Of a stretch of DNA of 64,000 nucleotides, positions 14,381 to 56,725 are shown in pieces. Under the pieces are notes generated by a model, which was not told the DNA's origin, made no database searches, and saw only the letters and a program-made list of their open reading frames with translations. Origin of the DNA: Pristiophorus japonicus. Taxonomy: Eukaryota. Both the position numbers and the translations under genes were made by a program. Location of the stretch: assembly GCF_044704955.1 (NCBI RefSeq), contig NC_091998.1, positions 44,516,001 to 44,580,000 of the forward strand, written 5' to 3'. Positions within the stretch are counted from its first letter, which is position 1. Each line of letters starts with the position of its first letter.

Positions 14381-14675
14381 TTAATGGGTGTCCACAATTT
14401 CTGACTATGTATGGTCGGTGGGTGAGTCTCTACACTGGCCCAATGTTCATTAATTGCTGCCCACTTATCAACTCCTATGAGACAGCTTGGAGCAATTATT
14501 AGGATAGGAAAGGCAGCTGTATATATTATAAAACAGTGACAGAGGATGAATTATTGAAAGGCTTGCAAGGTCTCACAACGGGAGCACAGCCTCTGATAGA
14601 TGTACTAATGCAGTTGCCACTGTGAATGACACACACATCTTCTGAACATCTGTTCTCTTGCTTGTTGTTCATAGG

Positions 14676-16292
14676 ATGCCAGCACTATTGGGGCTTTTCA
14701 GCGTGTGCCTCCTGGTGATCACGGGGAGCTTATACCACCCCCGCCTGCTGAGTGATGAAGTTGAGAGTGAAGAGGTCCAGTCAAGAATGAAGGAGCAGGA
14801 GGACCACTACAAGCTGGAAATGGAGCGCCTCCAGAAAGAAGTGGATGAGAAAACTAATAGCGAGCATGAAATGAAGGTTAATAACAACGTAAGAGCAGAA
14901 AACACATTGCAGATAGATTGGAACACCTGGAATATTCTCCTAATGGTCACAATTCTGTTCGTGGAACTGTGGAGACAGGACACTTGGCCCCAGATACCAC
15001 ACAACTATAACAGCGAGGAAGAAGAGGAAGGAGAAAAGGAAAATGAATTTCCTCAACGAATTTATAGCAACATTTTGAATATTCCTGACAAATGTGTGCT
15101 GGATCAATTTTACGACACATGTATTCAGAATGGGAGTCAAGAGCCGCTGCAGACGAGCGAATTTGTTGAAAGCTTTGTGGACAATCTCTTGGAAGCCTGT
15201 AGAACCCTTTGCCAATGGGATTCTGAGCTGATCCTTGAAGACTGTGTGGGCATTGGGAGTCAGTTTGAGAGATGGGGCTGCAAGACGCCCTCGGTGTATG
15301 ATATTTTGGTTCCGATTTATCTTCAGGATGAATATTGCTTTAAACCGGAGATCTGTTGCTGTGACATCCCACCTGATAAGCAAAGTTATGGCCGGATTGT
15401 TATGGTAACACCTAGCAGCACTGACTTGGGCTGCCTGTGTAAAAACACTGAACTCGAAGGAGATGTTCTCTGCCTTATTCACAGCAAAAGGTTTGAAGCT
15501 GATGTTCGTGCCAATTGCCTGGCTTCTATCGTGTGCTCTGAATGGTATTTGGACTACAAGAAAGTCCTGAAATGGTTCAGGGTTGCACTGGCAAAATCCT
15601 GGAGCAAGGTTTGTCATAAGTACGATTTTCAACTTTCCTTCCATAATATCACTGGTTGCTGCGGTTTGAAAGTTGAGTATCAGTCGGGACGAAACATCTA
15701 CATTAAAGTCTTCCCTGCTGTGAGGCTGAAGGATTCAGACGTTTACCTCGTGTCCAACTTTTCCGATTACGCCAAGAATACTGTGCTGTCCACTACCTAC
15801 TGGCACATATCCTGTGCTGTCTGCGAATATCGATTTCTGAAAATCATGGCAAAAAGTGTGCCCAAAAACAGCTGTCACCTCAAGTGCCTTCAAATATTGA
15901 TCTTTCTAACTGAAAAGCTGCGCAGCGCTCCAGACCAGCGGATCGTTCTTGGGTCCTACCTTTTTAAGACTGTACTTATGCATCTGTTGTTAAGTCAGCC
16001 GTACTCAAACTGGCACGAATGTCACCTGGAACATAGGCTCAGAGACATTTTGAAGTACCTTGGAAAATGCTTGGATGAAAAACGGCTCCACCGATTTATG
16101 ATTGGGAATCAGACCTTTCCTAAGCAAATTGGAATCCCGGAAATGCTTCTGTATGCCGAGCCTATAAACCTCTTCCGGTCCTTTGTGACACAGCGTGATT
16201 CTTACAGTCAGGCACTAATGGAATATCAAAAACTACTAAGAGACATGGGTCCGTTAATGATGGAATGCATTAAAGATAATACAGTCAGCTGA
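14676..16292 (+). CDS. ITPRIPL1: ITPRIP-like 1; type I membrane protein with Mab-21/cGAS-like fold, 538 aa, single coding exon
   Basis: Intact ORF; acceptor ..gttgttcatag|G ATG at 14676; signal peptide, coiled coil, TM (WNILLMVTILFVELW), acidic run, EGDVLCLIH, SCHLKCLQIL, KTVLMHLL, LHRFMIGN, EPINLF motifs of the ITPRIP family; lies just upstream of NCAPH as human ITPRIPL1 does (paralogue choice rests on synteny). Confidence 0.88.
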   Translation: MPALLGLFSVCLLVITGSLYHPRLLSDEVESEEVQSRMKEQEDHYKLEMERLQKEVDEKTNSEHEMKVNNNVRAENTLQIDWNTWNILLMVTILFVELWRQDTWPQIPHNYNSEEEEEGEKENEFPQRIYSNILNIPDKCVLDQFYDTCIQNGSQEPLQTSEFVESFVDNLLEACRTLCQWDSELILEDCVGIGSQFERWGCKTPSVYDILVPIYLQDEYCFKPEICCCDIPPDKQSYGRIVMVTPSSTDLGCLCKNTELEGDVLCLIHSKRFEADVRANCLASIVCSEWYLDYKKVLKWFRVALAKSWSKVCHKYDFQLSFHNITGCCGLKVEYQSGRNIYIKVFPAVRLKDSDVYLVSNFSDYAKNTVLSTTYWHISCAVCEYRFLKIMAKSVPKNSCHLKCLQILIFLTEKLRSAPDQRIVLGSYLFKTVLMHLLLSQPYSNWHECHLEHRLRDILKYLGKCLDEKRLHRFMIGNQTFPKQIGIPEMLLYAEPINLFRSFVTQRDSYSQALMEYQKLLRDMGPLMMECIKDNTVS

Positions 16293-19509: not shown

Positions 19510-21470
19510 CTTTAAAAAGGAAGAGAGTAGCAAACACTGGTCCCTTAGAGGCTGAGACTGGAGAAATTATTATGGGGAATAAGAAAATGGCAGAAACGTA
19601 TATCTGTCTTCACAGCAGAAGACACAAAAAGCATACCAAAAATGGGGGGAACCAAGAGTCTAATGAGGGTGAGGAACTTACTGTAAATAATGTCAGTAGA
19701 GAAAAAGTACTAGAGAACGAATGGGACTAAAAGCCGACAAATCCCCTGGACCCGACAGCCTACATCTTAGGGTTTCAAAAGAGGTGGATGCATTGGTTTT
19801 GATCCTCCAAAATTCCCGAGATTCTAGAACGGTCCCAGCGGATTGGAAGGTAGCAAATGTAACACTGCTAATCAAGAAAGGAGACAGAAAACAGGGAACT
19901 ACAGGCCAGTTAGCCTGATAACAGTCATCGGGAAAATGCTGGAATTTATTGTTAAGGAAGTGGTATCAGGGTACTTAGAAAATCATAACATGATTAGGCA
20001 GAGTCAACATGGTTTTATGAAAGGGAAATCATGTTTTTTGAGGATGTAACTAGCAGGGTATACAAAGGGGAACTAGTGGATGTAATATATTTGGATTTCC
20101 AAAAGGGATTCAATAAGGTGACACATAAAAGGTTATTACACAAGATAAGGGCTCATGGAGTTGGGGGTAATATAGTAGCATGGATAAATTGGTTAACAGA
20201 CAGAAAACAGAGAGTAGGGATAAACGGGTCTTCTTCAGGTTGGCAGGCTGTAACTAGTGGGATGCCGCAAGAATCAGTGCTGGGTCCTCAGCTATTTACA
20301 ATCTATATTAATGACCTAGATGAAGGGACTGAGTGTAATGTATCCAAGTTTTCTGATGATACAAAGCTAGGTAGGACAGTAAGCTGTGAGAACAGAGAGT
20401 CTGTAAAGGGATATAGACTACATGAGTGGGCAGTAAGGTGGCAGATGGTGTATAACAGAATCATAGAAAATAGGTGCAGGAGCAGGCCATTCAATATGAT
20501 CATGGCTGATTATGCAACTTCAGTACCCCACTCCCGCCTTCTCTCCATACCCCCTGATCCCCTTAGCCGTAAGGGCCACATCTAACTCCCTCTTGAATAT
20601 ATCCAACGAACAGGACTCAACAACTTTCTGTGGTAGAGAATTCCACAAGTTCACCACTCTCTGGGTGAAAAAGTTTCTCCTCATCTCGGTCCTATATGAC
20701 TTACTCCTTAATGCAGGGAAATGTGAGGTTATTCACTTTGGTAGGAAGAATAGAACAACAGAATATTTTTAAATAGTGCTAAAATTTTAAATATTGGTGC
20801 TCAGAGATTTGGGTGTCCTCATGCAAGAAAGCTAGGATGTAGATACAGCAAGCAATAAGGAAGGAAACTGGAATGTTTATTGCAAGGGGGTTGGAGTATA
20901 TGAGTAAGGAAGTCTTGCTACAATTATACAGGATGTTGGTAAGACCACCCATGGAATACTGTGCACAGTTTTGGTCTCCTTAACTAAGGAAGGATATACT
21001 TGTCTTGGAGGCTAGATTGATTCTTGGGATGAGAGGGCTGTCCTATGATGAATGATTGTGCAGAATGGGCCTATACTCTGGTGTTTAGAAGAATGAGAGG
21101 TGATCTGATTGAAACATACAAGATTCTGAGGGGGATTGACATGGTAGATGCTGAGAGGTTGTTTCCCCGGGCTGGAATGTCTAGAATCAGGGGCATAGTC
21201 TCAGGATAAGGGGTAGGCCACTTAAGACTGAGATGAAGAAGGATTTCTTCACTCGGAGGATTGCAAAACTTTGGAATTCTCTGCCCCAGAGGATGCTGGG
21301 TCTTTGAGTATATTCAAGGCTAAGATAGATAGATTTTTGGGCTCTAGGAGAATCAAGGGATTTGGAGATCGGGTGGGAAAGTGGAGTTGAGGTCAATGAT
21401 CAGCCATGATCTTATTGAATGGTGGAGTGGGCTCGTAAAGCCTACTCCTGCTCCTACTTTTTATGTTCTC
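19510..21470 (+). mobile_element. CR1 LINE ORF2 remnant and 3' end, with nested antisense CR1 tail (about 20455-20710)
   Basis: [60 protein letters not shown]. Confidence 0.9.
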
Positions 21471-36400: not shown

Positions 36401-39400
36401 GCATTCCTGGGTTAGCAGCTGTCACAGTGCTCACACTGTCGAGTTCAGATAGGAAAGGGTGAGGCCATAGAGGGATTTTAACATGAGGATGAACATTTTA
36501 AAATCAAGGTGTTGGTGGACAGCGTTCCAACGACAATGGTGGAAATTTTAGCAGTACTATATAAATCCAATATTTATTCTGTTACTTTCGTAGAAAATCA
36601 CCACGAAGAATGCCTTTGGTCTTCACCTGATTGATTACATGGCTGACCTCCTCAAAGAGAAGGAATCTGAACTCACCAGCTTCAAGGTTAGTAAGGCATA
36701 CAATACGCAAGATATTATTCAATTGATTCCTATAATATCTCCCCTGTGACTTTACTAGAGGGCCAGACAATTCCTTTCGGACTTCTGCAATTTCACAGTA
36801 GCCATGTAACTGACATGATCTCTTAGCTTACTATAGTTTGGATTACATCTCATTAATCATCTTCTGTTACTGATATGAAGGTAAAGTGCTTGAGATGTGC
36901 CCTGTTACTTTTTTTGTATTTAGTTCAGTGGATGTTAGAACATAAGAATTAGGATCAGGAGTAGGCCATTTGACCCCTCGAGACTGCTCCGCCATTCAAT
37001 GAGATCATGGCTGATCTTCGATCTCAACTCCACTTTCCTGCACTATCCCCATATCCCTTGATTCCCTTAATATCCAAAAATCTATTGATCTCTATCTTGA
37101 ATATACTCAATGACTGAACCTCCATAGCCCTCTGGGGGTAGAGAATTCCAAAGATTCACTACCCTCTGAGTGAAGAAGTTTCTCCTTATCTCAGTCCTAA
37201 ATGGCCGACTCCTTATTCTGAGACTGACCCCCTGGTTCTAGATTCCTCAGCCAGAGGAAACATTCTCCCTGCATTCTACCCTATCAAGCCCTGTAAGAAT
37301 TTTGTATCTTTCAGTGAGATCACCTCTCATTCTTCTAAACTCGAGGGAATATAGTCTTAGTCTACTCAATCTCTCCTCGTAGGACAATCCCCCTGTCCCA
37401 GGAATCAGTCTGGGATTTGTAATGTTAGTTATTACAAATCCTTTAGACACACGATTTTGGAGTCCAGTGTCCCAGCTCTTAAGCTAATAAAATGTTACAT
37501 CGGTAGAAATCCTTTGACTGCAACAACATGCAAGTCTTGAATGGGTTATAATTTATTCTGAATTTTCCCCACTGCAGTCTCTCTCTCAGTGATCCCTCCA
37601 CTTCTGCTCCAAAGCAGGGTCTTTTATCTGTCAAATTCACTGTCAACGTTCCACCTTGGTTTCACAGTTTCAGTTATGACCTAATGAGCAAGTTGTATTC
37701 TAGACCACAGCAGGTCGAGTCCACTTTTGAAATACAAAAGTATAAGAACCCCGGGTAAGAAAGAGGTAGGATAGATGACAGCCATTCCTAGGACCACAGT
37801 ACCAACAGTAAACCATTGACCGAGTCACAGTGTGCATCAGCGTCAAATGTCATGGTTTTTAGTACACTTCACCTGTTGTGGTTTTATCTTCAATATTTCA
37901 AGTACAAGAAATGGGAAATCTGACTAGGGAAGAAGCCCTGTGCCTCCAAAGAGAGGTCAAAGAGTAAGATACATGACTGAGGAAGCTGTTATTAACCAGC
38001 CATATTAAAAGTAGTAGTTATCCATCAACAAGGGGTGCAGATTAACATTGCAGTCAGAGGCACACCAGTCTGCAGTAATGCTCTTCAGTCCAGGACAGGT
38101 TTCTGGCCCATATTGGTCCTCAGCGTCTTGAACTACTTTATTCATAGGTTGTTGAAGATGGTAACCTTCAGGCCACCGGTTCAGTTAACTGAATGGATCT
38201 CTACAACTCAGTATAGTGTATTTTGGTTTGCCCCATTAAAGATTCTTGGAGTTTAATATAGTGAGAGTGAGCGACTGATGCAAAGGTCTGCCATTTGGCA
38301 TGACGTCAGTACCCAGATTGCAATGCTTGACAGTAAAGGCAGCTTTCTCGACACCTTCATCTCTTCCCATGCTTAGACAATTGGTTCAACTAATGGCTTT
38401 CCCAAAACTGCACAGTTCTGAGTGCTCCAGGAACGCTAGAATACCTTATAAATGACTCGAGCCATGTTGGAGCTCGCTTTAGCCGCATACGTATTCTTCG
38501 AATAGAAAAATGGGAGGTAATCTCATTGAAACATATAAGATACTGAGGGGGATTGGCAGGGTAGATGCTGTGAGGTTGTTTCTCCTGGCTGGAGAGTCTC
38601 GAACCAGGGGTCACAGTATCAGGATAAAGGGTCGTCCATTTAAGACTGAGATAAGGGGGAATTTCTTCACTCGAGGGTTGTGAATCTTTGGAATTCTCTA
38701 TTCCAAAGGGCTGTGGATGCTGAGTCTTTGAGTATATTCAAGGCTGAGATAGACAGATTTTTGGAGACTCAACAGCTATGGGGATCAGGTAGGAAAGTGG
38801 AGTTGATGTCGAAGATCAGCCATGATCTCATTGAATGGCAGAGCAGGCTTGAAGGGCTGTATGGCTTACTCCTGCTCCTAATTCTTATGTTCTAACAGCA
38901 AGCTGCTTATGTGTACAATGCGACTGCTCAAGCTACCCAACACTGATGCTTCATTTTTACTGGATATGGTCATATCAAAGTCTTAGAGGGACAATGTATT
39001 ATTTGTATAATGGTGTGTTTGTGCGTGGAGGTTGAACCTCAATCTATGGCTGTATGTACAGTAGGTAATTTAATCTATTTTGCTAATTGTTAACTGAAGT
39101 AACGTGTGTGCATCTCGACGATTTGTTAACCTGGTACTTTCTAACTGGTTACAGATGGCGGCTGGCACATTGGATGCTAGCACTAAGATCTATGCTGTGA
39201 GGGTGGATGCTGTTCATTCAGACGTGTTCAGGATCCTGGGGGGCTTGGGGAAGAACTCTGAAGAGCCGGGTGCAGGTGAGCAACTGCAATATTATATCTT
39301 CATTCTTGTTTAAAAGGCAAGTTTAGTTTTATTACTCCTCACCACTCTGGTGCATCATTAAATCACAAGTACAGCAGTTATAAGATGAGCAAAAAGTCCT

Positions 39401-42400
39401 ATCTTACAGTGAAATGCTAGATTGTTTTCCCTCCAGTTCCCTTGTATAAAAATATAAACATAGAATTGTGATTTAGGGAGCTGGGAAAGGCCTTGGTTTC
39501 CTTTTTTAATAAGTTTTCAATCCCTCTATGTTCCAACATACAATGGCTGTGCTTTCTCTGTCCAGAGCTAAACCCTGATTCTACTGATGCCGAGAACGCA
39601 AAAGGCTCTCAGAAACAACACAGAAAGAAGCACTCGTACAAAACCATTGAACAGAACTTGAGCAACATCACGTACGGAGCGAGTGACATGAAGTGTGAGG
39701 TGAGATTATTTTTCCTCTCTTGAAGGTGGCCATACGATTCAGCGGGCGCCAACAATCCCTCTGCGATTGAGCAAGTGACCGTTCTTCTTGTGTAATCCTT
39801 GACAATAAACAGGCTGTTCAACCATAGACTGCACCTCCCAAACCCACAACTCTACCACCTAGAGGACAAGGGCAGCAGGTGCATGGGAACACCACCACCT
39901 AAAAGTTCCCCTCCAAGTCACACACCATCCTGACTTGGAAGTATATCTCTGTTCCTTCATCGTTGCTGGGTCAAAATCCTGGAACTCCCTCCCTGACAGC
40001 CTTTTGGCTAAGATCATGCGTACCTGACCTGACAGGGGAGTAACCATGACCAGAAAGTGGTTCTCCCTGGATCAGGAAGGTGGTTCTCCTATGCTTTTTG
40101 GAAATAGGAGGTGGGTGGGGGGGCTTGACCCGTCCACCTCCATGGCACGAACCTGGTATTGCAGTACTTCCAGGAACGGTGCTTTGGCTCTAGGCCTTTT
40201 GGCTAAGAGCAAAAACATTGGCGCAGAGTGATCCTTGAATGGGCCCAAGGTGACCTTTGGCGTTTATGACCTGACAAGTTGATCTGACAAAGAATTGGAA
40301 AGATTGGCAACGAATAAAACATAAAAAATAAAAAATAAATCTGTTCTTATCAGTTGGCGTTTATGATCTGACAAGTTGATCTGAAAAAGAATTGGAAAGA
40401 TTGGCAACGAATAAAACATATTTAAAAAAAAAAAAATCTGTTCTTATCAGTTTAATATCCCCTATGGGGACATGATATTGAATTGATTTTTGGACAGGGA
40501 GCTGGATCAGGGGCATGCCCCGTCCACTCCATGCACCGACCTGGTATTGCAATATTTCCAGGAACGGTGCAACTTCGCCTCTCGGCCTTTTGGCCTAAGA
40601 TCAAATATATTGGCGCAAAGTGATCTTTGGCGTTAGAGTTGATCTGGAAAGAAATTGGACATAAAAAAAAAAATCTGTTCTTTCAGTTTAATGGAACAGG
40701 GGCTTGCCCTGTCCACTCCACGCACCGACCTGGTATTGCAGTGTTTCCAGGAACGGTGCAGCTTCCCCTCTCGGCCTTTTGGCTAAGATCAAGTGTAAAT
40801 AGCGCAAAGTGATCTTTGGCGCTGGAGTTGATCTGACAAGAATGAAAAAAAAATCTGTTCTTATCAGTTTAATATCCCCTATCTGGGGACCAAATATTAA
40901 ATAGATTTTTGGAACAGGGAGATGGAACAGGGGCTTGCTCCGTCCACTCCATGCTTCGACCTGGTATTGCAGTGTTTCCAGGAACGGTGCAGCTTCCCCT
41001 CTCGGCCTTTTGGCTAAGATCAAGTGTAGTAGCGCAAAGTGAGCTTTGGCGTGGATTTGAGCTGACAAGAATGAACATGAGAAAAAAAAAATAAGGACTG
41101 CCTGAGGTTTTGCTTGAAAGAGAGTGCTGGCTTTTTTCATGCATTGCTGCTGAACGGGAGTGCTGAGTGCTTTTGAAGTGTTGCTGCTCAATGGCACTCT
41201 CTGCGAATTGACTGATTGCAGAAACTCGTCTTTCCAGTTTGGCCACGTCTGGCTTTTTGGCTCGGGTCAAGCACCAATTGGGGAGAAGAAGAAATCTGCA
41301 TGTCGACCGACCAATGTGGTCCGCCAAGGTGCCGGACTGGCACCACGAAGGATTGAAGGCTTTGGCCAAAACACAAGCCCAAAGGAGGAATCTGCAACCC
41401 GGATGGCGGCCAACCGAGCGGCGAACCAGGGCGTCCGAAACACCATCCGAGTGACTGTAAAGAAAGTGGAAGGACAGACGATGATCAACCGGGACCTCTT
41501 CATGAAGAAAATCCTGCTTGAAACCTGTGGCATGAAAGTCGCGTATGTCTTCGCCTTGCAGGACATCCGGAAGAGAGGTTACTTTGATGTAACCTTCAGA
41601 AACGTCACCTAATGCCTGAAATTCCTGAAGGGATTGAAGGAGGCGAGTGAACCACTGCGGTCAGTGCTGACTTGGGAACCACTGTTCACCCTCCCGTTGC
41701 AGAGGAAATAATGCACATGTACAACCCCCACATCCCGGTCATTGATGTGCTGACGTTCCTCACCAGGTATATCGATGGGGCAGGAAACAGCATCGACCTG
41801 AAAGACTTCCACGGGATTTGGACCAGCAAGCGCCAGATCCAGGTCACCATGAAAGTGGACGCCAGCGGAACCATCATGCACCCCCCCACCAGCTTCGCAA
41901 CCGGAGGAAGTCGGGGCTACATGGTGTATGCCGGACAACCCAATGTGTGCCGAACCTGCGGGAAAGCAGGCCACGTGGCGGCAAGCTGCAAAGCAATCAT
42001 TTGCCGCAACTGCAAGAAGGAAGGACACCAGATAAAGGACTGTAAAGAGAGCAAGTGTGATCAGGCTGGACATCTGTACCAGGCCTGCCCCAAGCGGAAT
42101 TTCAGTTATGCGCAGGCGGCAAAGAACATGGTGACATGTGAGGAGAAAGCTGAGGAGTGCAACGCCCAAGAGGAGACCGACACCTCCCTCCCCTCCAAGA
42201 CACCGTACGAACAAGCCACTGCCCTAGTCGACACTGACCAGGAGGAGGAAGGAAAGTCTGCCACGGCAAGCCGCCAGACACTAGCACCCAGCAGTGAAAC
42301 TCCCCCCCCCCCCCCCCCCCCCACCCCCGAGACACCGAGTCCATGGAAGAGGAGGGATCTGAAGCAGAAGGAAAACAGGAATGGCAGCTCGTCGAGAAGA

Positions 42401-45400
42401 AGGCGGCCCGCAAGTCAAAGGAAAAGGGACCGCCTGCAGAAACGAGAGGCAAAAAACGGCTACTGTCCACGACGGACAGCAGTGGCTACAGCTCATCCGA
42501 TGATGAGGGGCGAGGCAAAAGCCCCCACTACCACCAGCAGAAGAAGAGGCAAAACGCCAATGCGACCAGTGCAGTCCAGCTCCGGGACCCCGGGAGCAGT
42601 GAAGTCACCAATGCACATCTGCTCTGGATTTCTGGGAGCAACGAAGCAACAGATGAAACCCAGCTCTGGATTTCCAGGAGCGAAGAAGCAACCGATGCAA
42701 CCCCGCTCCGGATCTCTGGGAGCGACGAAGCGACAGATGCACCCCAGCTCTAGAACGCTGTGAGCGACGACACCACAGGGGATGCACACAAGGAACAACC
42801 AACACCAGGTGAGGGCAGCCCAGTTGACATGGAGGACTCCCCGTCCACACTGCTCGTGTCCCCTTGTCGAACCATCCCCAAGGCAGAGGACAACCCATAT
42901 CTCAGCCAAGGTGCAGTAGAAAAGTTTAAAGTTAACCTATGTATACGGGAACAGGTCACAGGGCCAAAGGACTGAGTGTTCGAAATGTAATTTTTGGATT
43001 GTAATCACCAATTTAAAAATGGGTTTAAAGATTGCATCCATTAATGTGCGTAGCATTAAGACAACTACGCGATGTGTTTCCACCTTGGGGTACCTCGCCA
43101 AGGTCAAGGCAGACCTGCTATTCTTGCAGGAGCTGCCGCACTTCAGCAGTTACCGGCAGTGGTTGCAATGGTGGTCCCACGGACCATCCGTCTGGTCAGG
43201 AGGCAACGATTGCCGTTCCTCCGGCCTGGGCATTCTCCTGCGGGAGGCCACTTTACCATCACCGAAGTTAAGGAGGTGATGGGTGGCTGCCTCCTCATAG
43301 CAGATGTATTGTATAAAAATGTTCCTCTAAGGCTAATTAACGTGTATGCCTCGCCTCTCAGAAGCGAGCGGCTGGCCCTCCTCCAGCAGCTCCCACTGCT
43401 GCTGGGGACATCCAGACCGGTCGTTCTGGGCGGTGATTTCAACTGCATCATCGATGCGGCTGGACGATCCAGCAGAACCGACAGCAAACTGGACACCACA
43501 TCCAAACTCCTGATGGACGTGGTAAAAGATGGCAAGCTGTGCGACGTCTTCAGCAACCCTGCAGATGGAGCACCGCGCAGATACACCTGGTCGAGACCAG
43601 ACTGGTCCGTCCATTCCAGAATAGACTTCCTGTTTGTGTCCCACATGCTCAAGGTCAGATCCACCGACGTCATGCCAGTGTTCTTCTCTGACCACTGCCA
43701 CCTACTGGCCGACTGCCTCCCACAGGAAGACCAGAAAGTTGGCAGGGGGATATGGAAGCTCAACGTGAAACTGTTGACCCCGGAAAATGTTGAGGAACTC
43801 TAGGGATTACAAAGGTTTGGGAACCGTAAAACCCCTCTAAGATTCTCCGATGCACTGGTGGGAAACAATCAAGACAAACGTCAAGAGGTTCTTCATCCTC
43901 AAAGGTGTTCAGGAGGTGAGAGGGAGACAGAGGGAATTGTCCCAACTCCAGAAGAGTATGCAAAACCTGCTCCTGCTGCAGTCGATGGGGATCGATGTTG
44001 CAGAGGAACTCCAAGAGGTGAAGGGCCAGCAAGTCTCGCTCTTTGCCTCAGAATCCTCCAAAATCATTTTCCACTCCAGAGTCCGCTCCGTCGAGCAGGA
44101 TGAGACGTGTTCGCGTTTCTTCTTCCAAAAGGTACACTGGGAGCTCTGTGATCAGCAGCCGAAAGGAAGAAGATGGTTCTGTGACGTCTTCACAGCCCGA
44201 CATGCTGAGGATCAGCAAATCCTTCTATGCCGGGCTGTACAACGTCAAGCCCACAGACCGCGCGGCCTCCCTGTCTTTCCTGTCGTCTATCTCAGAGGTC
44301 TTAGACGACAGCGAGCGGGAGAGTCTGGACCACCCGCTAACTCTGGACGAGATGACAAAGGCCATCCGGTCCTTTGCGAAGAGTAAAACTCCCGGAAGCG
44401 ACGGCTTACCGGTCGAGTTGTATTCGGCTCTGTGGCACTGGATGGGCCCAGACCTGCTGGAAGTGTACTGGGGTATGCTTCTGGCCGGCAACATGTCAGA
44501 ATCAATGAGGAAAGGCATCATCACCCTCATCTACAAGCAGAAGGGGGAGAGGGAGGAAATCAAAAACTGGCGGCCCATCTCGCTGCTCAATGTGGATTAC
44601 AAGATCCTGTCAAAGGTCATTGCAAACAGGGTCAAGTCTGCTCTGGAGCTGGTGATCCACCCGGACCAGACCTGCGCTGTTCCCGGCAGGAAGATCTCTG
44701 ATAGCCTCGCTCTACTCAGGGATACAATCGCCTACATGCGGGACAGGAGGGTGGACACCTGTTTAATCAGCCTGGACCAGGAGAAGGCCTTTGACAGGAT
44801 ATCGCACACGTACCTGATGGACGTGCTCTCCAAGATGGGGTTTGGGGAGGATATCCGCAATTGGATCCATCTGCTCTACACAGACATCAGTAGCACAGTT
44901 CTAATCAACTGGTGGGAAACTGAAAGCTGTCCCCTCTCCTCTGTCTTGTTTATGTGCTTTATCGAGCCCTTTGCCGAGTCCATCAGGAAGGATGTGAGCA
45001 TTAGAGGGGTGACGATTCCAGGCAGCAGAGGCGCTCAGGTCAAGACCTCCCTGTACATGGATGACGTCACCGTCTTTTGCTCGGATCCGCAGTCGGTCCG
45101 CAGATTGCTCACGATCTGCGACCAGTTTGATCTGTGGCCTCGGGAGCGAAGGTCAATCGCAGCAAAAGCGAGGCCATGTTCTTTGGCAACTGGGCCGACC
45201 GATCCTTTATTCCCTTCACTGTTAAACCAGATTACCTGAAGGTGTTGGGAATATGGTTCGGAGCGGACGGGGCGTGCTCCAAAAACTGGGAAGAGCGTAT
45301 TGCCAAAGTGAAACAAAAACTAGGATGATGGAAGCTGCGTTCCCTCTTCATCGCAGGAAAGAACCTGGTCATCAGGAGTGAGTTGCTCTTGGTGTTGTTG

Positions 45401-48400
45401 TACGTGGCGCAGGTCTAGCCCATCTCGCGCTCCTGCGCCGCGGCAGTTACCCGGGCCGTCTTCCACTTTGTCTGGAGGTCCAAATGGACCGTGTCCGCAG
45501 AGACACGATGTACAAATCTCTGGACAGTGGAGGAAAGGATGTTCCGAACATGGCCCTCATCCTGATGGCCACCTTTGTGTGCGGCTGCATCAAGCTGTGC
45601 ACCGACTCCCGGTACGCAAACACCAAGTGTCACTACGTGCTGAGGTTCTATCTGTGTCCGGTATTGCGAAGGATGGGTCTGGCCACGCTGCCGCGAAACG
45701 CCCCCACCAGTTGCACCATACCTGTCCTTCGTGGAAAAGTTTTTTTAGAAAAAACCCCTTTGACCACAAGGCCTTAAAGAAGTGGTTGGCACGTAAGGTC
45801 CTGGATGCCCTACAAAAGGAGGAGAGGGTGGACCCTGTCGGGTGGTTCCCCGAGCAGACTGTCAAACTCATCTGGCAGAACGTTTCATCGCCAGAGCTTT
45901 CACACAAGCACCAAGACGTAGCTTGGTTGGCGGTGAGGAGGGCCCTACCCGTCAGATCCTTCATGCACAGCCGGGGTTTCAGACACACAGCACTCTACCC
46001 CCGAGTTGGCTGTGGTGTCATCCATCTCCTTCGGGATTGCCCCTTTGCAAGGCAGGTCTGGAAGGAGATGCAGTGGTTGCTGTCGAGGTTCATCCCAAGC
46101 AGCTCCGTAACACAGGACTGAGCTCTACGGGCTGTTCCCAGGGACACACACTGACACAGACATCATCTGCTGCTGGAGGGCCATCAACTCGGTGAAAGAC
46201 GCACTTTGGTCTTGCCGAAACTTGCTGATCTTCCAGAGCAAGGAGATGTCCACGTCTGCGTGTTGCAGACTGGCGCAATCCAAGATCCAGGAGTATGTGC
46301 TGAGGGACGCACTAAAAATTGGTGCAGTCGCCGCAAAGGCACGATGGGGAAGAGCCACGGTTTAAAGCCCTTCCGCCATGGTAAACCCAGGGGCTGGAAT
46401 CAGTATCCCCTCGGGCTGTACTTGTAAACTTTTTGTATACATAGGTTTTTTAAGATCATGGTGCTCTATGTAGTGCCATGAATAATGCAAGTTCTGTTTA
46501 GTAATGTATGTTGCAAAGAAATGTAACTGTACCCTCACCCATTCCGTGTACCGTATAGTGTCACTAGTAAAGTAATTTGATGACTGTATTACAATGTATC
46601 CTGGATTGTACTGAAATATACCTCAAAATGTAAAGCAAGCAAATGTGTTGAACGGAATTGCCATTAGCATCCAAATGTAATGTATGGAATTGCTGCCCGC
46701 ATCCAAATGTACTGAACTGCCTTCCAATGTATTGTGCACATTTTTATATGAATAAAGTATATTTAGAAATTTTAAAAAACTGCAACGGTTCAAGAAGACT
46801 GATCACCACCTTCTCATGGGCAATAAATGCTGGCCTTGTCAGCGACGCCCACATCCCATGGATGGATTTTTTTTTAAAAGATGGAATTGTGGCTGTGCTG
46901 AACCCTGTCCTTCTTGACTCCACATATGCACACTTCCAGGAGAAATCACTGAATACCAATCAGGAGCAGGGGCCTTGTTTTCTTTTTAACATTAACATGG
47001 AACTATGATATTGTGTACCAGGAAGCTGAGGATGGTTCTCATCTCCTTTTATAATTTTTAGAATCTTCTTCTGTGTGTTTGTCCCATTGAATTATGTAAT
47101 TATAGTCCATGGAATGTAGATCTTTTTCTAAGTAACAATTTTACATCATAATGAGCTGATGAAATGAAGAATGGATAGCAACTTACATTTCCCAATATAA
47201 ATGAGGAAAAGAAGATGGAGAGATCTTTGTTTTAAGAAGCCAAACAAAAGAATCCTAGTTCCGAACACACTGCAGGTGAAGTTTAATGGACACCTTATAT
47301 TTTGCAGATTGACCCAATGTTCCAGAAAGCTGCCTCGATGTTTGATGAATGCAGCACAGTGGGGGTTTTCATGGTTAATCTCCAGACGTATGGACACTCT
47401 GCTCAGTTGCTTTTTGATTCAGATGTCAAGCTCATTCAAACTGGTCCTGCACCAGAATTGCCGCCCATTGGCCACGTGGAGATATCTGATCTTGGAGGCA
47501 AGTTTTTTTTTAAATTATCGCTGAATGGTAACATTTCTGTGTCTGCAGAAGTACTTTTACAAGTTTAGTATCCCTAACGATTGTTATCTTATCTTCTCCT
47601 CCCGAAGAGGATAATCTATGCTAATCCACTGTATCCGGTTGCATGCTTCTAGTCACTTACATTAGAATATAATATAGGAAGCAGAAGTAGGATATACGGC
47701 CCCTCGAGCCCGCTTGATTTTCATATACCTTGATTCCCCTAGAGTCAAAAAATCTATCAATCTCGGCCTTGAATATACTCAACGATTCAGCATATACAGC
47801 CCTTTTGGGGTAGAGAATTCCAAAGACTCACAACTGTCTGAGTGAAAAAAACTCAGTCTTAAATGGCCGACCCCTTTTCCTGAGTTCTAGACAGGGGAAA
47901 CAGCATCTATTATCTTCCCAGCTCTCAGCTTCTACCCTGTCAAGCCCTCTCAGTATCTTATATGTTTCAATCAGATTACCTCTATCATTCTTCTAAACTC
48001 CAGAGAGTATAGGCTCAATCTCTCACTCTTGGACCATGATTACACGCTGATTCCGAGTAGCATTTCTGCTTTTGGTGAATCTTTCCAGTTAAGGTTCTCA
48101 GCTCACTGGACTGTAAGTGTCAGTGTGATTGGCTAGAGCAAGTCAGTTTGGGTGATAGCTAAGTCACTGATTAGGTCCACAGTTATTTCTCTAACATGCA
48201 ATTAACAGTCAACTTTCTTTATGTAATGGACAGTACCTGGGGAAGGGCTGGCTCCAGTCTGGTGTGGTAATGTTAATTCATAACTGGTTGCCGGATTAGT
48301 GACCGACGGCCCTGAAATCCGGTGGCGCATTCGACCAGCCCTGGTGTGCCTGCGCTGTCTGGCAGTGATTATAAATCTACCAATGAGTTTTCCCAGCAAA

Positions 48401-51400: not shown

Positions 51401-54400
51401 GAAAGCTGACGACACTGCCTACAGATTTCCATTACAATCCAGACAACATTACCTGTCTGTTCCTTAAACCTTCTGTCACGGTAAATGAAGCACCTTTTCC
51501 AGTAAATTCAAATAATGAATCGCGCGATCTCAAAACAATCTGTCATATTTCACTTTCGTTGAGTGTTCACAAGTCGAGGCACCTTGGAGAAGCCCAAAAA
51601 CATGGTGCCCGAGAGTACTAGGAGCTGGGCTCAATTCCATACTTCTCCATGTGATGAGTTTCCATTATTAGCTGATCCACTGCGGAGAAGCCAGCTGCTT
51701 TCTTTTAGGGCTGGAAGCTGAGAAGAATGATGACCCTATACCCACAAGTGGCAGGAAGAAGCTCGAGAACAAGTAGCCTGCGCTTGTGGCTAGAATTGTG
51801 ACTTAACAAAAAAATAGAATAAGAGGAAAATTACTTAAATGAGAATGTCTGTCAGATGGGGAGCACGCTCTCGTAAAACTCCCACTACATTGTTACATCA
51901 TGTGCTGCAGGTTAGATACACATGGCTCCGACTCTCTCCCCTCTAACCCCAACTCTAGAGCACCCCTTACTGCACCAATTTGACAGGTAGTTGGTCTTTA
52001 CTCCTAGTTGGGAGGGGTAGTGTGCTCCTTGGAGTATGGGAATAGGGCCCAACTGCTGCATTCTTCAGGGTACTGCAGTGATAAACATTTCACAACTTAT
52101 CCTGTGCCTACAGACTGGATGTTGGTTAGTACATCAGGAGTGGAGTTAAACGATGGACTGTGAAGCATTCTGGTGTGTGTGTATGTGTAAAATAATTCTG
52201 TATTCTCCATTGAATTGTGTATACCTGGCCCAGGAGTGTTTGAGGCTAACACTAATGTTCCCTCTAAGGCTGCGCGGCTGTGCAGTAATGGGGAAGGCTG
52301 CTCACCGCCTTTTACATTGTAAACACCGCGCATGCGCAGAAATTTAAAGGGACCGCACATTAAAAGAAACGGGCTGCGCAGAACAAAGCGCAGCTCACAG
52401 GGAACATTGGCTGACACCCTATGTTCAAGTTAGAGTAAGGGTTCCATTTTCTACTGTTGACTTCCCTCACCTTGATCAGTATGAAACTTTTCACCAAAAT
52501 TGACTGTTTGCAGATAAAGCGGATTGTGAAAGAAAGTATCAACTCGGACCAAGATGAAAGAATCGGGGAATATGATTATAACAACCCCAACGATACTTCA
52601 AACTTCTGCCCTAGAGTTCAGGTCTGTATCTATTGCTTGCACATTCCTCCTGCAGATTTTTCTAAAATGGCCAACATGACCATGAACTACTTGTGACTTT
52701 TTAAATGTTTTTATAAATTCCTTTCTTGGCATCGCTCCCCTTTTTTATTTTTCCGACAGATTGATAGCGATGATGAGCATGATGGGTTTGTTGCTGCAAA
52801 CGACTCCTTTGCGATGGAGCAAGACGAGAATGGCTTGGCGCTAGATGGGAAGGGGTTAAACATCACAACCTATGGAGGAGAAAACCTTGTGGCAGAGCCT
52901 CAGAAAGTAAGTGGGTTAGATAAGAACATAAGAAATAGGAGCAGGAGCAGGAGTAGGCCATACAGCCCCTCGAGCCTGTTCCACCATTAATTAGATCATA
53001 GCTGATTTTCGACCTCAACTCCACTTTCCCGCCTGATCTCCATATTCCCTGATTCACCTAGAGTCCAAAAATCTACCAATCTCAGTCTTGAATATACTCA
53101 CATGATTCAGCCCTTTGGGTTAAAGAATTCCAAAGTCTCAAAACCCTATGAGTGAAGAAATTTCTTCTCATTGCAGTCCTAAATAGCTGACCCCTTATCC
53201 CCCCCTAATTCTCGACTCTCCAACCATGTGAAACAACCTTTCAGCATCTACCCTGTGAATCCCCCTCAGAATCTTGTATGTTTCAATGTGATCACCTCTC
53301 ATTCTCCTAAACTTCAGAGAGTATGGGCCCATTCTACACAATCTCTCCTCATAGGGCAGCCCTCTCCTCCCAGGAATCAATCCAGTGAACCCTTTGTTGC
53401 ACCGTTTCTAAGGCAAGTATACCCATCCTCGGGTAAGGAGACCAATACTGTGCATCGTACTCCCAGAAGTGGTCTCACCAAAGCCCTGTACATTTATAGC
53501 AAGATTTCCTTACTCTTGTAGAGTTGCATGCTGTAGTCTAGACTGCAAAGCTACATGGCTGTGTATTCAGGCAGTGTAGGGGACTGGCTCCTGTGTGCGT
53601 GGTTGGAGTAGAAATACTTAGTCTTGAGGTTTCAGCAGGCCCTGCATTGGAAAATAAGAGCTGCTGGCAAATGTTCTTATTGTGGGGATGTGTGACAATG
53701 CGCCAACCTGACTCACTTATAACAAGGAAGAGGGGCATATGCCGCAGAAAGTCCAGGTTTGATCACTGAAGTTTCTTATTGGAGTATGGCCCGCTGATTC
53801 TACTACACAAAGGGTCACTGTGTTAGACACTTAGGGCCCAAGTTTCCACAAGAAAGAAAACGGGCGCCTGCGCCTAAAACGGCGCCTAAAAAAATCCTCG
53901 GTATTCTCCACCTACTTACAGGTCCTCTGGCCCTCGGCGCAGCCAGCACGAGCTGTGGGGAGGGGGCGGAGCCAGGTCCCTGCGCTGAAAACAGTGCCGG
54001 GACCTCTGCACATGCGCGCTACAGTCGGCACGCAAGTGCAGTAGCTCCAGGCACCGAACTGTGTGGGAGGGGCCCGAAGCACGCAGCCCCTAGCCCTGGC
54101 TGAATGGCCTCACTGGGGCTGCGTGAATAAGGCTCCTCCCCCGACCGGACCCGACACCCGCTCCCCCCTGCCTCCGGACCAGACCCGACCCGACACCCGC
54201 TCCCCCCCCGCCCCGCCGACCAGACCCGACCCGACACCCGCTCCCCCTCCCACCCCATCGCTGACCAGACCCGACCCNNNNNNNNNNNNNNNNNNNNNNN
54301 NNNNNNNNNNNNNNNNNNNNNNNNNNNNNNNNNNNNNNNNNNNNNNNNNNNNNNNNNNNNNNNNNNNNNNNNNNNNNNNNNNNNNNNNNNNNNNNNNNNN

Positions 54401-56725
54401 NNNNNNNNNNNNNNNNNNNNNNNNNNNNNNNNNNNNNNNNNNNNNNNNNNNNNNNNNNNNNNNNNNNNNNNGCGACACGAACGGCTGCAGAATTCTCCCT
54501 GGCTGAAGCACTTTCACACAGGTAGGAAGATGGTTTATTTAATCTTTTCTTGGCTTATAAATGTTTATTCAGGTTGGATTTATTTGTATAATATTTGTAG
54601 AAGTATAAATAAGGATTTATTGTCGAATTTAATGAGTTCCCTTCCTCCCCCCTCCCCCCCACCTCGTTCTGGACACCTAATTTGTAACCTGTGCCTGATT
54701 TTTTAATGTGTAGAACAGATTTTTTCAGTTCTACAAAAATCTTCACTGGCTCCATTCTACTTTAGTTTGGAGTACATTTTCACTGTGGAAACTTTCAAAT
54801 CAGGCGTCAGTGGCTGGACACGCCCCCTTTTGAAGAAAAAATTCTGTTCTAAAGTAGAACTGTTCTACCTGACTAGAACTGCAGAAAAAAAAATGTGGAG
54901 AATTGCGATTTCTAAAATAGTCCGTTCTCCACCAGTTGCTCCTAAAAAATCAGGCGCGAATTATGTGGAAACTTGGGCCCTTAGTCACTGGTAAAGCTGG
55001 AGGCCTGCTCTTGTACCCTGTATGGGTTTCAGGATGTGTTAAATGGAATGAGAAATGCAGCGGATGGCTACGAGTTGTGCAAGTTTACAATTCTAATCTT
55101 AAATTCTGAATCTTTACAGGTCAACAAAATCCTGTTGAATTATTCAAAAACAGCTAAAAAGATGGATGTGAAAAGACTGAAGCAGAACATGTGGGATCTC
55201 CTGGTTGGAAATACACACATCCCAGATGGAACGGTGAGCGGTGTGCTGAATAGGATCCGCAAATGTGGGAAAGTTGATGCATCCTTTACAGCTGTAATAA
55301 GATTGAGTCTGGGCACTCCTGTGAGAAGCTGTGTTGCTGCTGGTGCAGTTATCCTCAGAAGTTGCTACCAGCTCACCAGGCAAACTTACTGTTGGAAACC
55401 TGTTTAAAATGCACTCGTCTTTTTGTGCTCGTAGTTTGTGGTTTCAAATCCCACTTCAGAGACTTGAGCACATAATCCAGGCTGGCAATCTAGTGTAGTA
55501 CTGAGGGAGTGCTGCACTGTCGGAGGTGCCGTCTTTCAGATGAGACGTTAAAACAGGTGGACGTAAAGGACATCATGGCACTATTAGAAGGAGAGCAGGG
55601 GAGTTCTCCCCAGTGCCCATGGCCAATATTTATCCCTCACCCAGTATCACTAAAACAGTTTACCTGGTCATTATCATATTGCTGTTGGTGGGACTTTGCT
55701 GTGTGCAAATTAGTTGCCACATTACAACAGTGACACTTCAAGAGTACTTAATTGGCTCTAAAGTGTTGGGTACGTCTTGAGATTGCGAAATGTGCTATAT
55801 AAATGCATGTCTTCTTATTAAACAGAATAGAGTGGCTGAGGAGCTGAAAATCAGTGCAATGACAGTGAAAGGACAGCAAAGCTTCACAATTATCACCAAG
55901 AATCTGCTTGAAAGGTTTGTTTTCTTTATCTTGTGTGGATCACCTTACTAATAAGGGTGTGCTGTTTCTGTTCAACTAGCCACCAGGAATATGTATCATT
56001 TTGTTTTTCATTTGTTTTAGAAATAATTCTTTGAATGATTAGAATCATAGAATGGTCGGAGGCCAGTCGACCATCGAGTCTGCGCTGGCTCTTTCGAAGA
56101 GCAATCCAGTTATTCCCGCTCCCCCACTCTTTCCCCATATACCTGCAATGTTTTCTACTGCAAGTATTGATGATGATTGATCCAGTTGGTAACTTTTGGG
56201 ACGCAGTATCCAATATAGCAGAACTGGGTGTCTCTAGGGTCTGAAGATCCTCATACCTGTGCCTCTACACTTAATTGTATGTGTGTAGTCTCCCTGATGC
56301 TAATGTCCAATTAGTACTCATTTTTTTTATGTCTACAGATTGCCCAGTACGATGGCAAATAACCTGTCTGTTCCCATGGCATTTGCCTGTTTGCTGCACC
56401 TAGCCAATGAAAAGGTACGTATAATACAGCATTGTTTCACCAGATATTTCATGAGTGACTGAACATCATGTATCTAAAAGTTGAGTAGCATAAAGTTTAG
56501 TCCTCGCAATCTGCAGGTGACATGCTAGAGAACCAGGGCTCCTGTGAGGCTGAGCACTGGATTACAGTTAGGTTTAGTGAGGACTGTAGTGGTTGATCGG
56601 GCACTGGACCAGGTCGAGATCTGGTGGCTGTTGCATGTTTAAAACAGCGTTTTATTATTTTACAGAATCTTGAAATCATAGGAAAGGAAGATTTGTCTGA
56701 TGTTGTTATCAAACAAGGAATCTGA
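33274..56725 (+). CDS. NCAPH: Condensin complex subunit 2 (CAP-H kleisin); 17 coding exons, 2100 nt, 699 aa
   Basis: All junction phases join into one open frame with [121 protein letters not shown]. Confidence 0.97.
33684..34393. mobile_element. hAT-like non-autonomous DNA transposon
   Basis: Imperfect TIRs CAGTGTTTCTCAAAC / GTTGGGAACCACTG; no recognisable TSD. Confidence 0.6.
34529..34616 (+). CDS. NCAPH: NCAPH exon 3
   Basis: [29 protein letters not shown]; ag/gt ends. Confidence 0.95.
35777..36247. repeat. 34-bp minisatellite, about 14 copies
   Basis: Unit ATTTCTGATTGGTCCCCTTGGAGGACAAGACTAG with variants. Confidence 0.95.
36594..36686 (+). CDS. NCAPH: NCAPH exon 4
   Basis: [31 protein letters not shown]. 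Confidence 0.96.
36938..37412 (-). mobile_element. CR1 3' fragment
   Basis: Minus-strand [24 protein letters not shown]. Confidence 0.85.
38500..38893 (+). mobile_element. CR1 3' end
   Basis: [18 protein letters not shown]; tail ttcttatgttct. Confidence 0.85.
39155..39275 (+). CDS. NCAPH: NCAPH exon 5
   Basis: [32 protein letters not shown]. Confidence 0.96.
39566..39699 (+). CDS. NCAPH: NCAPH exon 6
   Basis: [25 protein letters not shown]. Confidence 0.95.
39825..39998 (+). mobile_element. LINE 3' tail (HER1/HE1-type), left part; continues at 46780-46875
   Basis: ..gggtcaaaatcctggaactccctccc (WNSLP motif); the right part matches the SINE tail at 10081-10165. Confidence 0.7.
39999..40182 (+). 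pseudogene. Monomer A: U2 5' piece + U1 5' piece + U2 3' domain
   Basis: GCCTTTTGGCTAAGATCA; ACCTGACAGGGGAGTAACCATGACCAGAAAGTGGTTCTCCC (U1-like); CCTGGTATTGCAGTACTTCCAGGAACGGTGC. Confidence 0.8.
40183..40573 (+). pseudogene. Monomer B: U2-derived, with double poly(A)-tailed insert
   Basis: GGCCTTTTGGCTAAGA..insert..TCTGTTCTTATCAGTT (40340)..insert..TCTGTTCTTATCAGTTTAATA (40437)..CCAGGAACGGTGCA. Confidence 0.88.
40574..40762 (+). pseudogene. Monomer C: U2-derived, internally deleted
   Basis: TTCGCCTCTCGGCCTTTTGG..insert..TCTGTTCTT (40674)..GTCCACTCCACGCACCGACCTGGTATTGCAG. Confidence 0.88.
40763..40993 (+). pseudogene. Monomer D: near full-length U2-derived copy with insert
   Basis: CTCGGCCTTTTGGCTAAGATCAAGTGTA..insert..TCTGTTCTTATCAGTTTAATA (40854), Sm site GATTTTTGG, stem-loops III and IV. 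Confidence 0.92.
40994..41091 (+). pseudogene. Monomer E: U2 nt 1-38 plus insert, running into the Tx1 5' UTR
   Basis: CTCGGCCTTTTGGCTAAGATCAAGTGTAGTA then GCGCAAAGTGAGCTTTGGCG..A10. Confidence 0.9.
41403..42975 (+). pseudogene. Tx1 ORF1 (ZCCHC3-like, CCHC zinc knuckles), disrupted
   Basis: [23 protein letters not shown]; GIWTSKRQ; [35 protein letters not shown]; premature stop at 41610-41612 and frameshifts. Confidence 0.88.
42577..42750 (+). repeat. 42-bp (14-aa) tandem repeat, about 4 copies, in ORF1 C-terminus
   Basis: [14 protein letters not shown] / [14 protein letters not shown] / [14 protein letters not shown] / [14 protein letters not shown]. Confidence 0.85.
43019..46365 (+). pseudogene. 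Tx1 ORF2 (APE endonuclease + RT + zinc finger), frameshifted
   Basis: [30 protein letters not shown]; [39 protein letters not shown]; [13 protein letters not shown]. Confidence 0.93.
47308..47497 (+). CDS. NCAPH: NCAPH exon 7 (probable GC donor)
   Basis: [28 protein letters not shown]; GAG|GCAAGT in the phase needed by exon 8. Confidence 0.88.
47665..48030 (-). mobile_element. CR1 3' fragment
   Basis: Similar to 36938-37412. Confidence 0.75.
49082..49170 (+). CDS. NCAPH: NCAPH exon 8
   Basis: [29 protein letters not shown]. Confidence 0.95.
49698..49894 (+). CDS. NCAPH: NCAPH exon 9
   Basis: [23 protein letters not shown].. Confidence 0.93.
50153..50301 (+). CDS. NCAPH: NCAPH exon 10
   Basis: [24 protein letters not shown]. 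Confidence 0.96.
50638..50741 (+). CDS. NCAPH: NCAPH exon 11 (tandem acceptor; may start at 50641)
   Basis: [27 protein letters not shown]. Confidence 0.92.
51358..51480 (+). CDS. NCAPH: NCAPH exon 12
   Basis: [31 protein letters not shown]. Confidence 0.95.
52253..52409. mobile_element. hAT MITE (157 bp), 8-bp TSD
   Basis: TIRs TAATGTTCCCT / AGGGAACATTG; GCTAACAC (52245-52252) versus GCTGACAC (52410-52417). Confidence 0.8.
52514..52621 (+). CDS. NCAPH: NCAPH exon 13
   Basis: [20 protein letters not shown]. Confidence 0.96.
52760..52906 (+). CDS. NCAPH: NCAPH exon 14
   Basis: [24 protein letters not shown]. Confidence 0.95.
52921..53520 (-). mobile_element. CR1 3' fragment
   Basis: Minus-strand [23 protein letters not shown]; tail begins only about 15 nt after the exon 14 donor. 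Confidence 0.85.
53834..54980. mobile_element. PIF/Harbinger-type MITE, TSD TTA, containing the assembly gap
   Basis: TIRs GGGCCCAAGTTTCCACA / TGTGGAAACTTGGGCCC; TTA at 53831-53833 and 54981-54983. Confidence 0.92.
54278..54471. other. Assembly gap (194 N) next to a C-rich tandem repeat
   Basis: N run preceded by repeated GACCCGACCCGACACCCGCTCCCCC units. Confidence 0.99.
55120..55233 (+). CDS. NCAPH: NCAPH exon 15
   Basis: [28 protein letters not shown]. Confidence 0.96.
55423..55815 (+). mobile_element. Deu-domain tRNA SINE (SacSINE1-like)
   Basis: B-box-like gtttcaaatccc, Deu core ctgagggagtgctgcactgtcggaggtgccgtctttcagatgagacgttaaa, tail gctatataaatgcatgtcttctt. Confidence 0.8.
55826..55914 (+). 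CDS. NCAPH: NCAPH exon 16
   Basis: [30 protein letters not shown]; phases fit both neighbours. Confidence 0.88.
56339..56414 (+). CDS. NCAPH: NCAPH exon 17
   Basis: [25 protein letters not shown]. Confidence 0.96.
56666..56725 (+). CDS. NCAPH: NCAPH exon 18, coding part
   Basis: [19 protein letters not shown]. Confidence 0.95.
   Translation, partial: NLEIIGKEDLSDVVIKQGI

Follow-up and report, generated by a model that had tools for sequence, protein, structure and literature searches.

How pieces of U2 small nuclear RNA (snRNA) come to be stacked within an intron of a shark gene, each leading into a hairpin and an A-run and all of them lying beside a LINE, is the question raised by this locus. 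The window, a stretch of 64,000 nt from the 5.9-Gb genome of Pristiophorus japonicus, contains two exons of Cnd2 (condensin complex subunit 2; Pfam) on the same strand, at 39155-39274 and 47308-47496, which bracket the whole insertion, and the stack and the LINE both sit within the Cnd2 intron between them. In a first-pass annotation, the array had been described as U2 monomers broken at one common site by a small hairpin and poly(A) insert. The joints on which this description was built are real, and the units were read out of register. The inserts are almost certainly the 3' tails of a SINEU-like SINE with U2- and U1-derived heads, and the window array most probably consists of five copies of this SINE joined at U2 nt 39.

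The resumption of U2 at TCTGTTCT is confirmed at 40340, 40437, 40674 and 40854, with an A-rich run directly before each start, and the hairpin motifs are present, beginning at 40221, 40613, 40802 and 41032. Rfam matches to U2 are stacked in the same region, at 39985-40189, 40418-40577 and 40763-40997. A shared break at U2 nt 37-38 had been claimed for units B, C, D and E, but it is clean in E only, where the U2 piece ends in AAGTGTAGTA at nt 38; unit D reads AAGTGTAAATA and leaves U2 at about nt 35, unit C departs from U2 after about nt 30, and the U2 piece of unit B ends at nt 29. In the same way, a related hairpin motif occurs in all four units, but that of B is a longer form, a duplication of the short hairpin in which both stems show A-U pairs changed to G-C. 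The notion of an interrupted monomer does not survive, as the 5' U2 piece in front of each hairpin belongs to the interior of a SINE and is not the 5' counterpart of the U2 sequence that begins again behind the A-run. The U2 copies are nonetheless unable to work as U2, as had been supposed, for besides the break they lack 9 nt around U2 nt 60-68.

A genome-wide view places these units in a large family. The short hairpin has 563 exact matches in the genome and the long B hairpin 5,248, the reversed controls having none, and among 1,766 candidates obtained with window positions 40760-41200 as the query, nearly all of the 40 that were scored span U2 nt 39 to the A-run. In a sample of 60 tail loci, composed of the first 30 in each hairpin match list, a U2 5' piece lies directly upstream of the tail in every case, and target-site duplications (TSDs) are detectable in 33 by a strict count, which was adopted after a first scan (40/55) had included spurious A-rich matches. 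The duplications measure 8-24 bp in a wider set of 44 sites, and outside U2 the insertion preference is weak, extending only to an A followed by a T, with A at -1 in 41/44 sites (a figure biased by the tail) and T at +1 in 32/44. Two layouts are recognized. Types C, D and E consist of a near-complete U2 with a common 9-nt deletion, a second U2 5' piece, the hairpin tail and an A-run (about 260-280 bp), and type A/B is composed of U2 1-28, a U1 5' piece, the U2 3' half, U2 7-29, the long hairpin tail and an A-run (about 340 bp). With its TSDs, common deletion and subfamily variants, the family bears the marks of retrotransposition. The earlier alternative of a tiny SINE-like passenger was correct in kind but not in extent, the mobile unit being an A-tailed SINE of about 260-350 bp that includes the U2-derived heads, not the insert of 50-130 nt. 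U1 or U2 pieces are also seen added to the 5' ends of individual LINE and SINE copies (L311, L262, L016, L300 and L306), a feature known from Tx1-Mar and SINEU. Separately, 19/30 loci found with a U1 motif belong to another repeat family, in which about 28 nt of U1 5' sequence lies between shared flanks (L296, L299, L301-L304, L307-L310, L312, L313, L315-L317, L319 and L321-L323).

In the window, all units lie on the forward strand. The type A/B copy (39999-40339) contains U2 nt 12-29, a U1 5' piece at about 40021-40097, the U2 3' half, U2 nt 7-29 (40189-40212), the long hairpin tail B (40220-40320) and an A-rich run, and is about 94% identical to its best sampled relative, L137 (298 identities, 10 mismatches, 10 gaps). 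Its U1 piece gives a weak Rfam match (E 0.023); it aligns to the U1-headed copy L300 with a score of 138 against a maximum of 30 in 1,000 shuffles, and Rfam-confirmed U1 copies have the same 5' end. Then follow U2 nt 39-53 (40340-40354), which repeat 40437-40451 and are read as a 14-16 bp TSD, comparable duplications being found in L258, L273, L274, L281 and C1003, and a 5'-truncated copy of tail B with A13 (40355-40436), recognized from the sequence and the module map. The type C copy, starting from U2 nt 39 (40437-40673), carries U2 39-190 with the 9-nt deletion, a variant U2 5' piece, a hairpin at 40612-40634, the tail and A11, and matches the dispersed copy L141 at 224/226 positions (99%). 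Next, U2 nt 39-56 minus one base (40674-40690) repeat 40854-40871 and are read as a 17 bp TSD, and the type D copy, 5'-truncated at U2 nt 116 (40691-40853), has a U2 5' piece, a hairpin at 40801-40823, the tail and A9 (152/156 identical to L122, 97%). The last unit, type E from U2 nt 39 (40854-41091), consists of U2 39-191 with the 9-nt deletion, U2 7-38, a hairpin from 41031, the tail and A10; it shares 220 identities with L003, with 7 mismatches and 1 gap (96.5%), and dispersed E copies with TSDs exist.

The position at which these units are joined is a known target. In the part of PMC4640811 that concerns the U2 site, U2 downstream of Utopia begins at nt 39 with a flank identical to that of Keno, and PMC6136364 gives the 3' target as TCTGTTCTTATCAGTTTAAT; the joints of poly(A) to TCTGTTCTT at U2 nt 39 fall on this published Keno/Utopia site, in agreement with the first-pass annotation. 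In genuine U2, A6 joined to nt 39 has 56 matches, nearly all within U2 clusters, against 283 intact junctions. Fifty-four of the 56 joints were examined, and 21 follow tail B, 6 follow tail C and 27 follow a LINE 3' end. On C19, among 17 promoter-led U2 units, one is intact, five hold a SINE and eleven hold a LINE; on C1832, a SINE is present in 6/30 units. The LINE occurs at U2 nt 38/39 on C19, C1003, C4309 and C9, and its C19 form has a 1,145-aa ORF2 that is open in 15/15 copies checked, six compared copies being 99.2-100% identical. Pfam assigns an N-terminal apurinic-type endonuclease domain (APE), reverse transcriptase (RT) and zf-RVT to ORF2 of the U2-site LINE and ZCCHC3-type domains with a zinc knuckle to ORF1, and reports no restriction-like endonuclease family in this element. 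ORF2 is 39% identical over 98% of its length to Takifugu Q76B34, a protein that may belong to Keno, although no link between the two turned up in the literature. A short protein match at 81% identity to Heterodontus francisci would fit a cartilaginous fish as host, as would the repeat that flanks the insertions.

The LINE of the window (41102-46779, forward strand) is a broken Tx1-type element of this Keno-like family, with a ZCCHC3-type RNA-binding domain and zinc knuckle in ORF1 and with APE and RT domains in an ORF2 containing stops and frameshifts (Pfam). Over 3,853 nt it shares 86% identity with the intact copies that occupy U2 sites on C19. A second LINE family had been thought necessary since the inserts do not resemble the 3' end of the window LINE; this dissimilarity is borne out, no tail match being found there, but no second family is needed, because the LINE at nt 39 of real U2 arrays belongs to the window LINE's own family. 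The Keno-like family lacks strict U2 specificity and is widely dispersed: its 3' motif has 1,945 exact matches, and 0/30 unselected LINE 3' ends lie at U2 nt 39, which means that many dispersed SINE copies could have been made by another poly(A)-dependent LINE. An intact Tx1-type LINE with APE and RT and the SINEs are both found at nt 38/39 of genuine U2 genes, and from this sharing of a site it is very probable that the SINE is mobilised by the Keno-like LINE family.

Some further features of the U2 clusters were recorded. At C19:69.62-69.73 Mb (L094-L104), the LINE 5' end starts with CCTGTT, resembling the U2 target, and tandem LINE copies join poly(A) there, while one LINE is inserted in a SINE head between A and CCTGACC. 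The first 30 nt of the LINE contain ATTGG and ATGCAAAT motifs, presumably a CCAAT-box and an octamer, respectively. At C9:110.99-111.32 Mb and 113.4-113.8 Mb, a second type of U2 gene with other upstream sequence lies in large duplicated units that also contain fragments of the LINE 3' end and SINEs of the C or A/B type at nt 39.

Where the SINE is transcribed is suggested by copies residing in these arrays. Nineteen A/B copies begin at U2 +1 in U2 repeat units. In 18 of them the upstream sequence of the unit directly precedes the copy, the other one lying at a contig edge, and each of the 19 is followed by an A-run and then by U2 39-191 with its normal 3' flank. The array copies are near-identical and may descend from very few insertions, or even a single one, multiplied by tandem duplication, so that neither these 19 nor the 27 SINE joints can be counted as independent events. 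The array-type tail has 168 exact matches. Among 30 sampled dispersed copies with this tail, 29 match an array copy at 98.5-100% identity; 23 of these 30 young copies begin within U2 nt 1-13 or before, 7 are truncated further in, and none continues into U2 39-191 or carries upstream sequence beyond a few bases at chance level. Array copies are therefore likely to be SINE sources that would use the U2 promoter. No promoter element was identified in the sequence upstream of the U2 units.

It is in these terms that a cycle can be proposed, towards which we lean as a whole: a SINE lacking an internal promoter would home via Keno into U2 genes, take an external promoter there and spread to thousands of sites, its target-bearing head serving both as a decoy and for self-stacking. 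The U2 promoter would transcribe array copies from U2 +1, and the LINE ORF2 protein would reverse-transcribe the SINE RNA from the A-run in a target-primed manner, the two having no 3' tail in common. Integration would take place mostly at loose sites between A and T, with duplications of 8-24 bp, and sometimes exactly at U2 nt 39, where landing in a U2 gene would create a new source copy.

An unlikely but not negligible alternative is that the array copies are recent landing sites only, the sources using other flanking promoters and the U2 and U1 heads arising from template jumps to snRNA. Fresh U1 and U2 additions at the 5' ends of L016, L300, L306 and L311, like those in the SINEU section of PMC4494074, fit this alternative, and so does the lack of an array-resident C/D/E head: no promoter-adjacent C, D or E copy was found in the array stretches examined, namely 170 kb of C19, the whole of C1832 and C1868, 30 of 41 kb of C1003, 58 of 136 kb of C4309 and parts of C9. 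Moreover, the commonest array variant, with three changes, has 18 matches, 16 in U2 arrays and only 2 dispersed, one of the latter with an 11-bp TSD. Heads acquired by separate jumps are, in contrast, hard to match with the shared start of the 23/30 young copies, which have no 5' extension in common, or with the youth and homogeneity (98.5-100%) of the array-resident subfamily. A LINE insertion on C1003 weighs in the same direction. It reads promoter, U2 1-52, 35 nt, U2 1-38 with the LINE-linked change T34G, and LINE; as the second U2 1-38 bears this LINE-specific change, the inserted RNA was U2-headed and that LINE's RNA began at U2 +1.

The heads of types C, D and E contain U2 nt 1-60 and hence carry the Keno target. 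In the genome, the joint of A6 to nt 39 of the deleted U2 that the SINE itself carries has 27 exact matches, 5 in the C9 cluster and 2 in the window; the reversed pattern has none, and A6 followed directly by U2 nt 48, a further position where A meets T, has none either. The composites joined at nt 39 vary in their heads and in where they are truncated, and in several the target's U2 1-38 is retained along with a duplication of 4-20 bp. Among 149 loci that had not been selected for the joint, three are joined at nt 39, one site lies at nt 122 and two tandem joints lie at nt 6-7. Landing in the U2 head of a dispersed SINE would regenerate the site, through the duplication or the incoming head, and copies would thereby pile up. 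The window stack was likely built by five serial insertions into the Keno target in the SINE's own U2 head, in the likely order of E first, D (17-bp duplication), C, the short B tail (14-16 bp duplication) and A/B last; this proposed order is not mirrored by how closely each unit matches its best sampled relative. The array as it stands in the window is promoterless and most likely inert.

The flanks of the stack bear on its relation to the LINE. An older host repeat, presumably akin to the tail of shark HE1/HER1, on which a literature search found no paper, occupies 39830-39999, the ten bases between stack and LINE (41092-41101) and 46780-46870, all on the forward strand, and these three parts run on without interruption in copies L143 and L051; about 20 bp of it are missing at the 5' side of the stack, and the ten bases have the same letters as the TSD of the dispersed SINE L131. 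Judged from this continuity, the SINE stack and the LINE are each inserted into one older host repeat, and the LINE, which has its own duplication of 4-5 bp, (A)CTGC, at a site that is not U2, is by its boundaries a separate insertion. Elsewhere in the window, an open frame of 548 aa with a Mab-21 C-terminal domain lies at 14646-16292 (forward strand), fragments of other retroelements with RT/RNase H and RT domains lie at 3356-4066 and 19998-20585, and a run of 194 N lies at 54278-54471.

It is distinctly improbable that the array was instead built at another locus, such as one of U2, and reached the intron in a single composite RNA, perhaps as the leader of the LINE. Stacked units do exist within the U2 cluster of C9 as well as at L275-L277, some LINE copies bear U1 or U2 heads (L262, L311), and a single outer TSD bounds many composites, but an outer TSD is equally predicted by the first insertion alone. 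The earlier reading of the array as a LINE leader founders on the 10 bp of host repeat that separate the two and on the LINE's own short duplication; in addition, other copies of this LINE 5' end, among the matches listed, have unrelated upstream DNA, and the composites differ from one another in head and truncation point.

As one of its two readings, the first-pass annotation had taken the inserts for the 3' ends, cut short, of another and longer retroelement that targets U2, and although the join of U2 nt 38 to the tail in type E is identical to the LINE's 5' junction, so that an ancestral tail may once have landed here, and although the origin of the tail is left unexplained by the SINE, this explanation is very improbable, since the tail loci sampled revealed no longer parent (0/60 reach beyond U2 sequence), all 54 examined joints at nt 39 of genuine U2 are tails of U2-headed SINEs or the known LINE, and the tails do not match that LINE. 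No Rfam family covers the tails at E<=5, their comparison with both LINE copies, that of the window and that of the U2 site, gave no match better than E 0.28, and none was found in the spacers of the U2 units.

Folding was considered as well. The hairpins alone are no more stable than shuffled sequences (z -0.1 to -1.3), in spite of the stem drawn earlier. Together with the upstream U2 5' piece, the tail forms a longer stem in types C, D and typical E (z -3.4, -3.1 and -4.4, respectively, for stretches chosen after looking), which is absent in the window E copy and in three B stretches (z -0.6 to +0.6). In the stems of C, D and typical E (window 40597-40650 and 40785-40840; L121), the tail pairs back onto U2 nt 23-38 and so covers the branch-point-pairing region, and it may be that the tail originated as such a fold-back. 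A guide function, with the tail end pairing to U2 nt 41-57, was discarded, as pairing just as good arises in 31-118 of 1,000 shuffles for D/E, in 373-483 for B and in 70/500 for C.

The genes of snRNAs have external promoters. For this reason, the transcription of snRNA-headed SINEs is left as an open question in the SINEU section of PMC4494074, and the mechanism is not demonstrated in the corresponding portion of PMC5786205. This question becomes directly testable here, where candidate sources lie at U2 +1, an intact partner LINE shares their array and dispersed copies are nearly identical to them. If true, the cycle proposed here would answer how such SINEs are transcribed, would constitute the first SINEU outside crocodilians, and would be a natural example in which an APE LINE with a specific site moves an RNA that has no tail in common with it. 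The literature searched lists neither a SINEU from any group other than crocodilians nor a SINE partnered with Keno, although Repbase, Repbase Reports, the 2004 Keno paper and supplements may hold prior descriptions.

Among known systems, the closest in features is crocodilian SINEU. According to the sections of Kojima 2015 (PMC4494074) that describe them, SINEU-1/2/3 have U1/U2 heads, target Mariner-N4_AMi through Tx1-Mar and occur only in crocodilians. As far as that description extends, SINEU and the shark SINE have in common U1/U2-derived heads, a poly(A) tail, a non-coding body of <500 bp with internal oligo(T), repeated 5' snRNA additions, tandem insertions and the lack of a tail shared with a LINE, and in both, a Tx1-clade partner is deduced from shared targets, here from 27 SINE and 27 LINE joints at nt 39. 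Unlike SINEU as described there, the shark SINE targets U2 nt 39, sits in U2 genes behind U2 upstream sequence and carries its own target; likeness is drawn from features, not from sequence homology, and the two are assumed to have arisen independently.

The partner LINE resembles Keno in its APE endonuclease and RT and in its 3' joint at U2 nt 39, and differs from Keno, as portrayed in the relevant parts of PMC4640811, PMC6136364 and PMC4494074, in being widely dispersed and in having a SINE partner. Utopia, in the sections of PMC4640811 devoted to it, uses the same U2 site, forms tandem insertions in U2 genes and has weakened specificity in some lineages, but it encodes a restriction-like endonuclease, in contrast to the APE of the shark LINE. 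Finally, R2 and the R2/R1 SIDEs, as presented in part of PMC3414825, offer a parallel of non-autonomous passengers residing at the target of a site-specific LINE in a tandem RNA-gene array and co-transcribed with the host genes. SIDEs are deletion derivatives that retain their parent's ends and a ribozyme, whereas the shark SINEs share no sequence with their LINE and have become dispersed over thousands of sites beyond the arrays.
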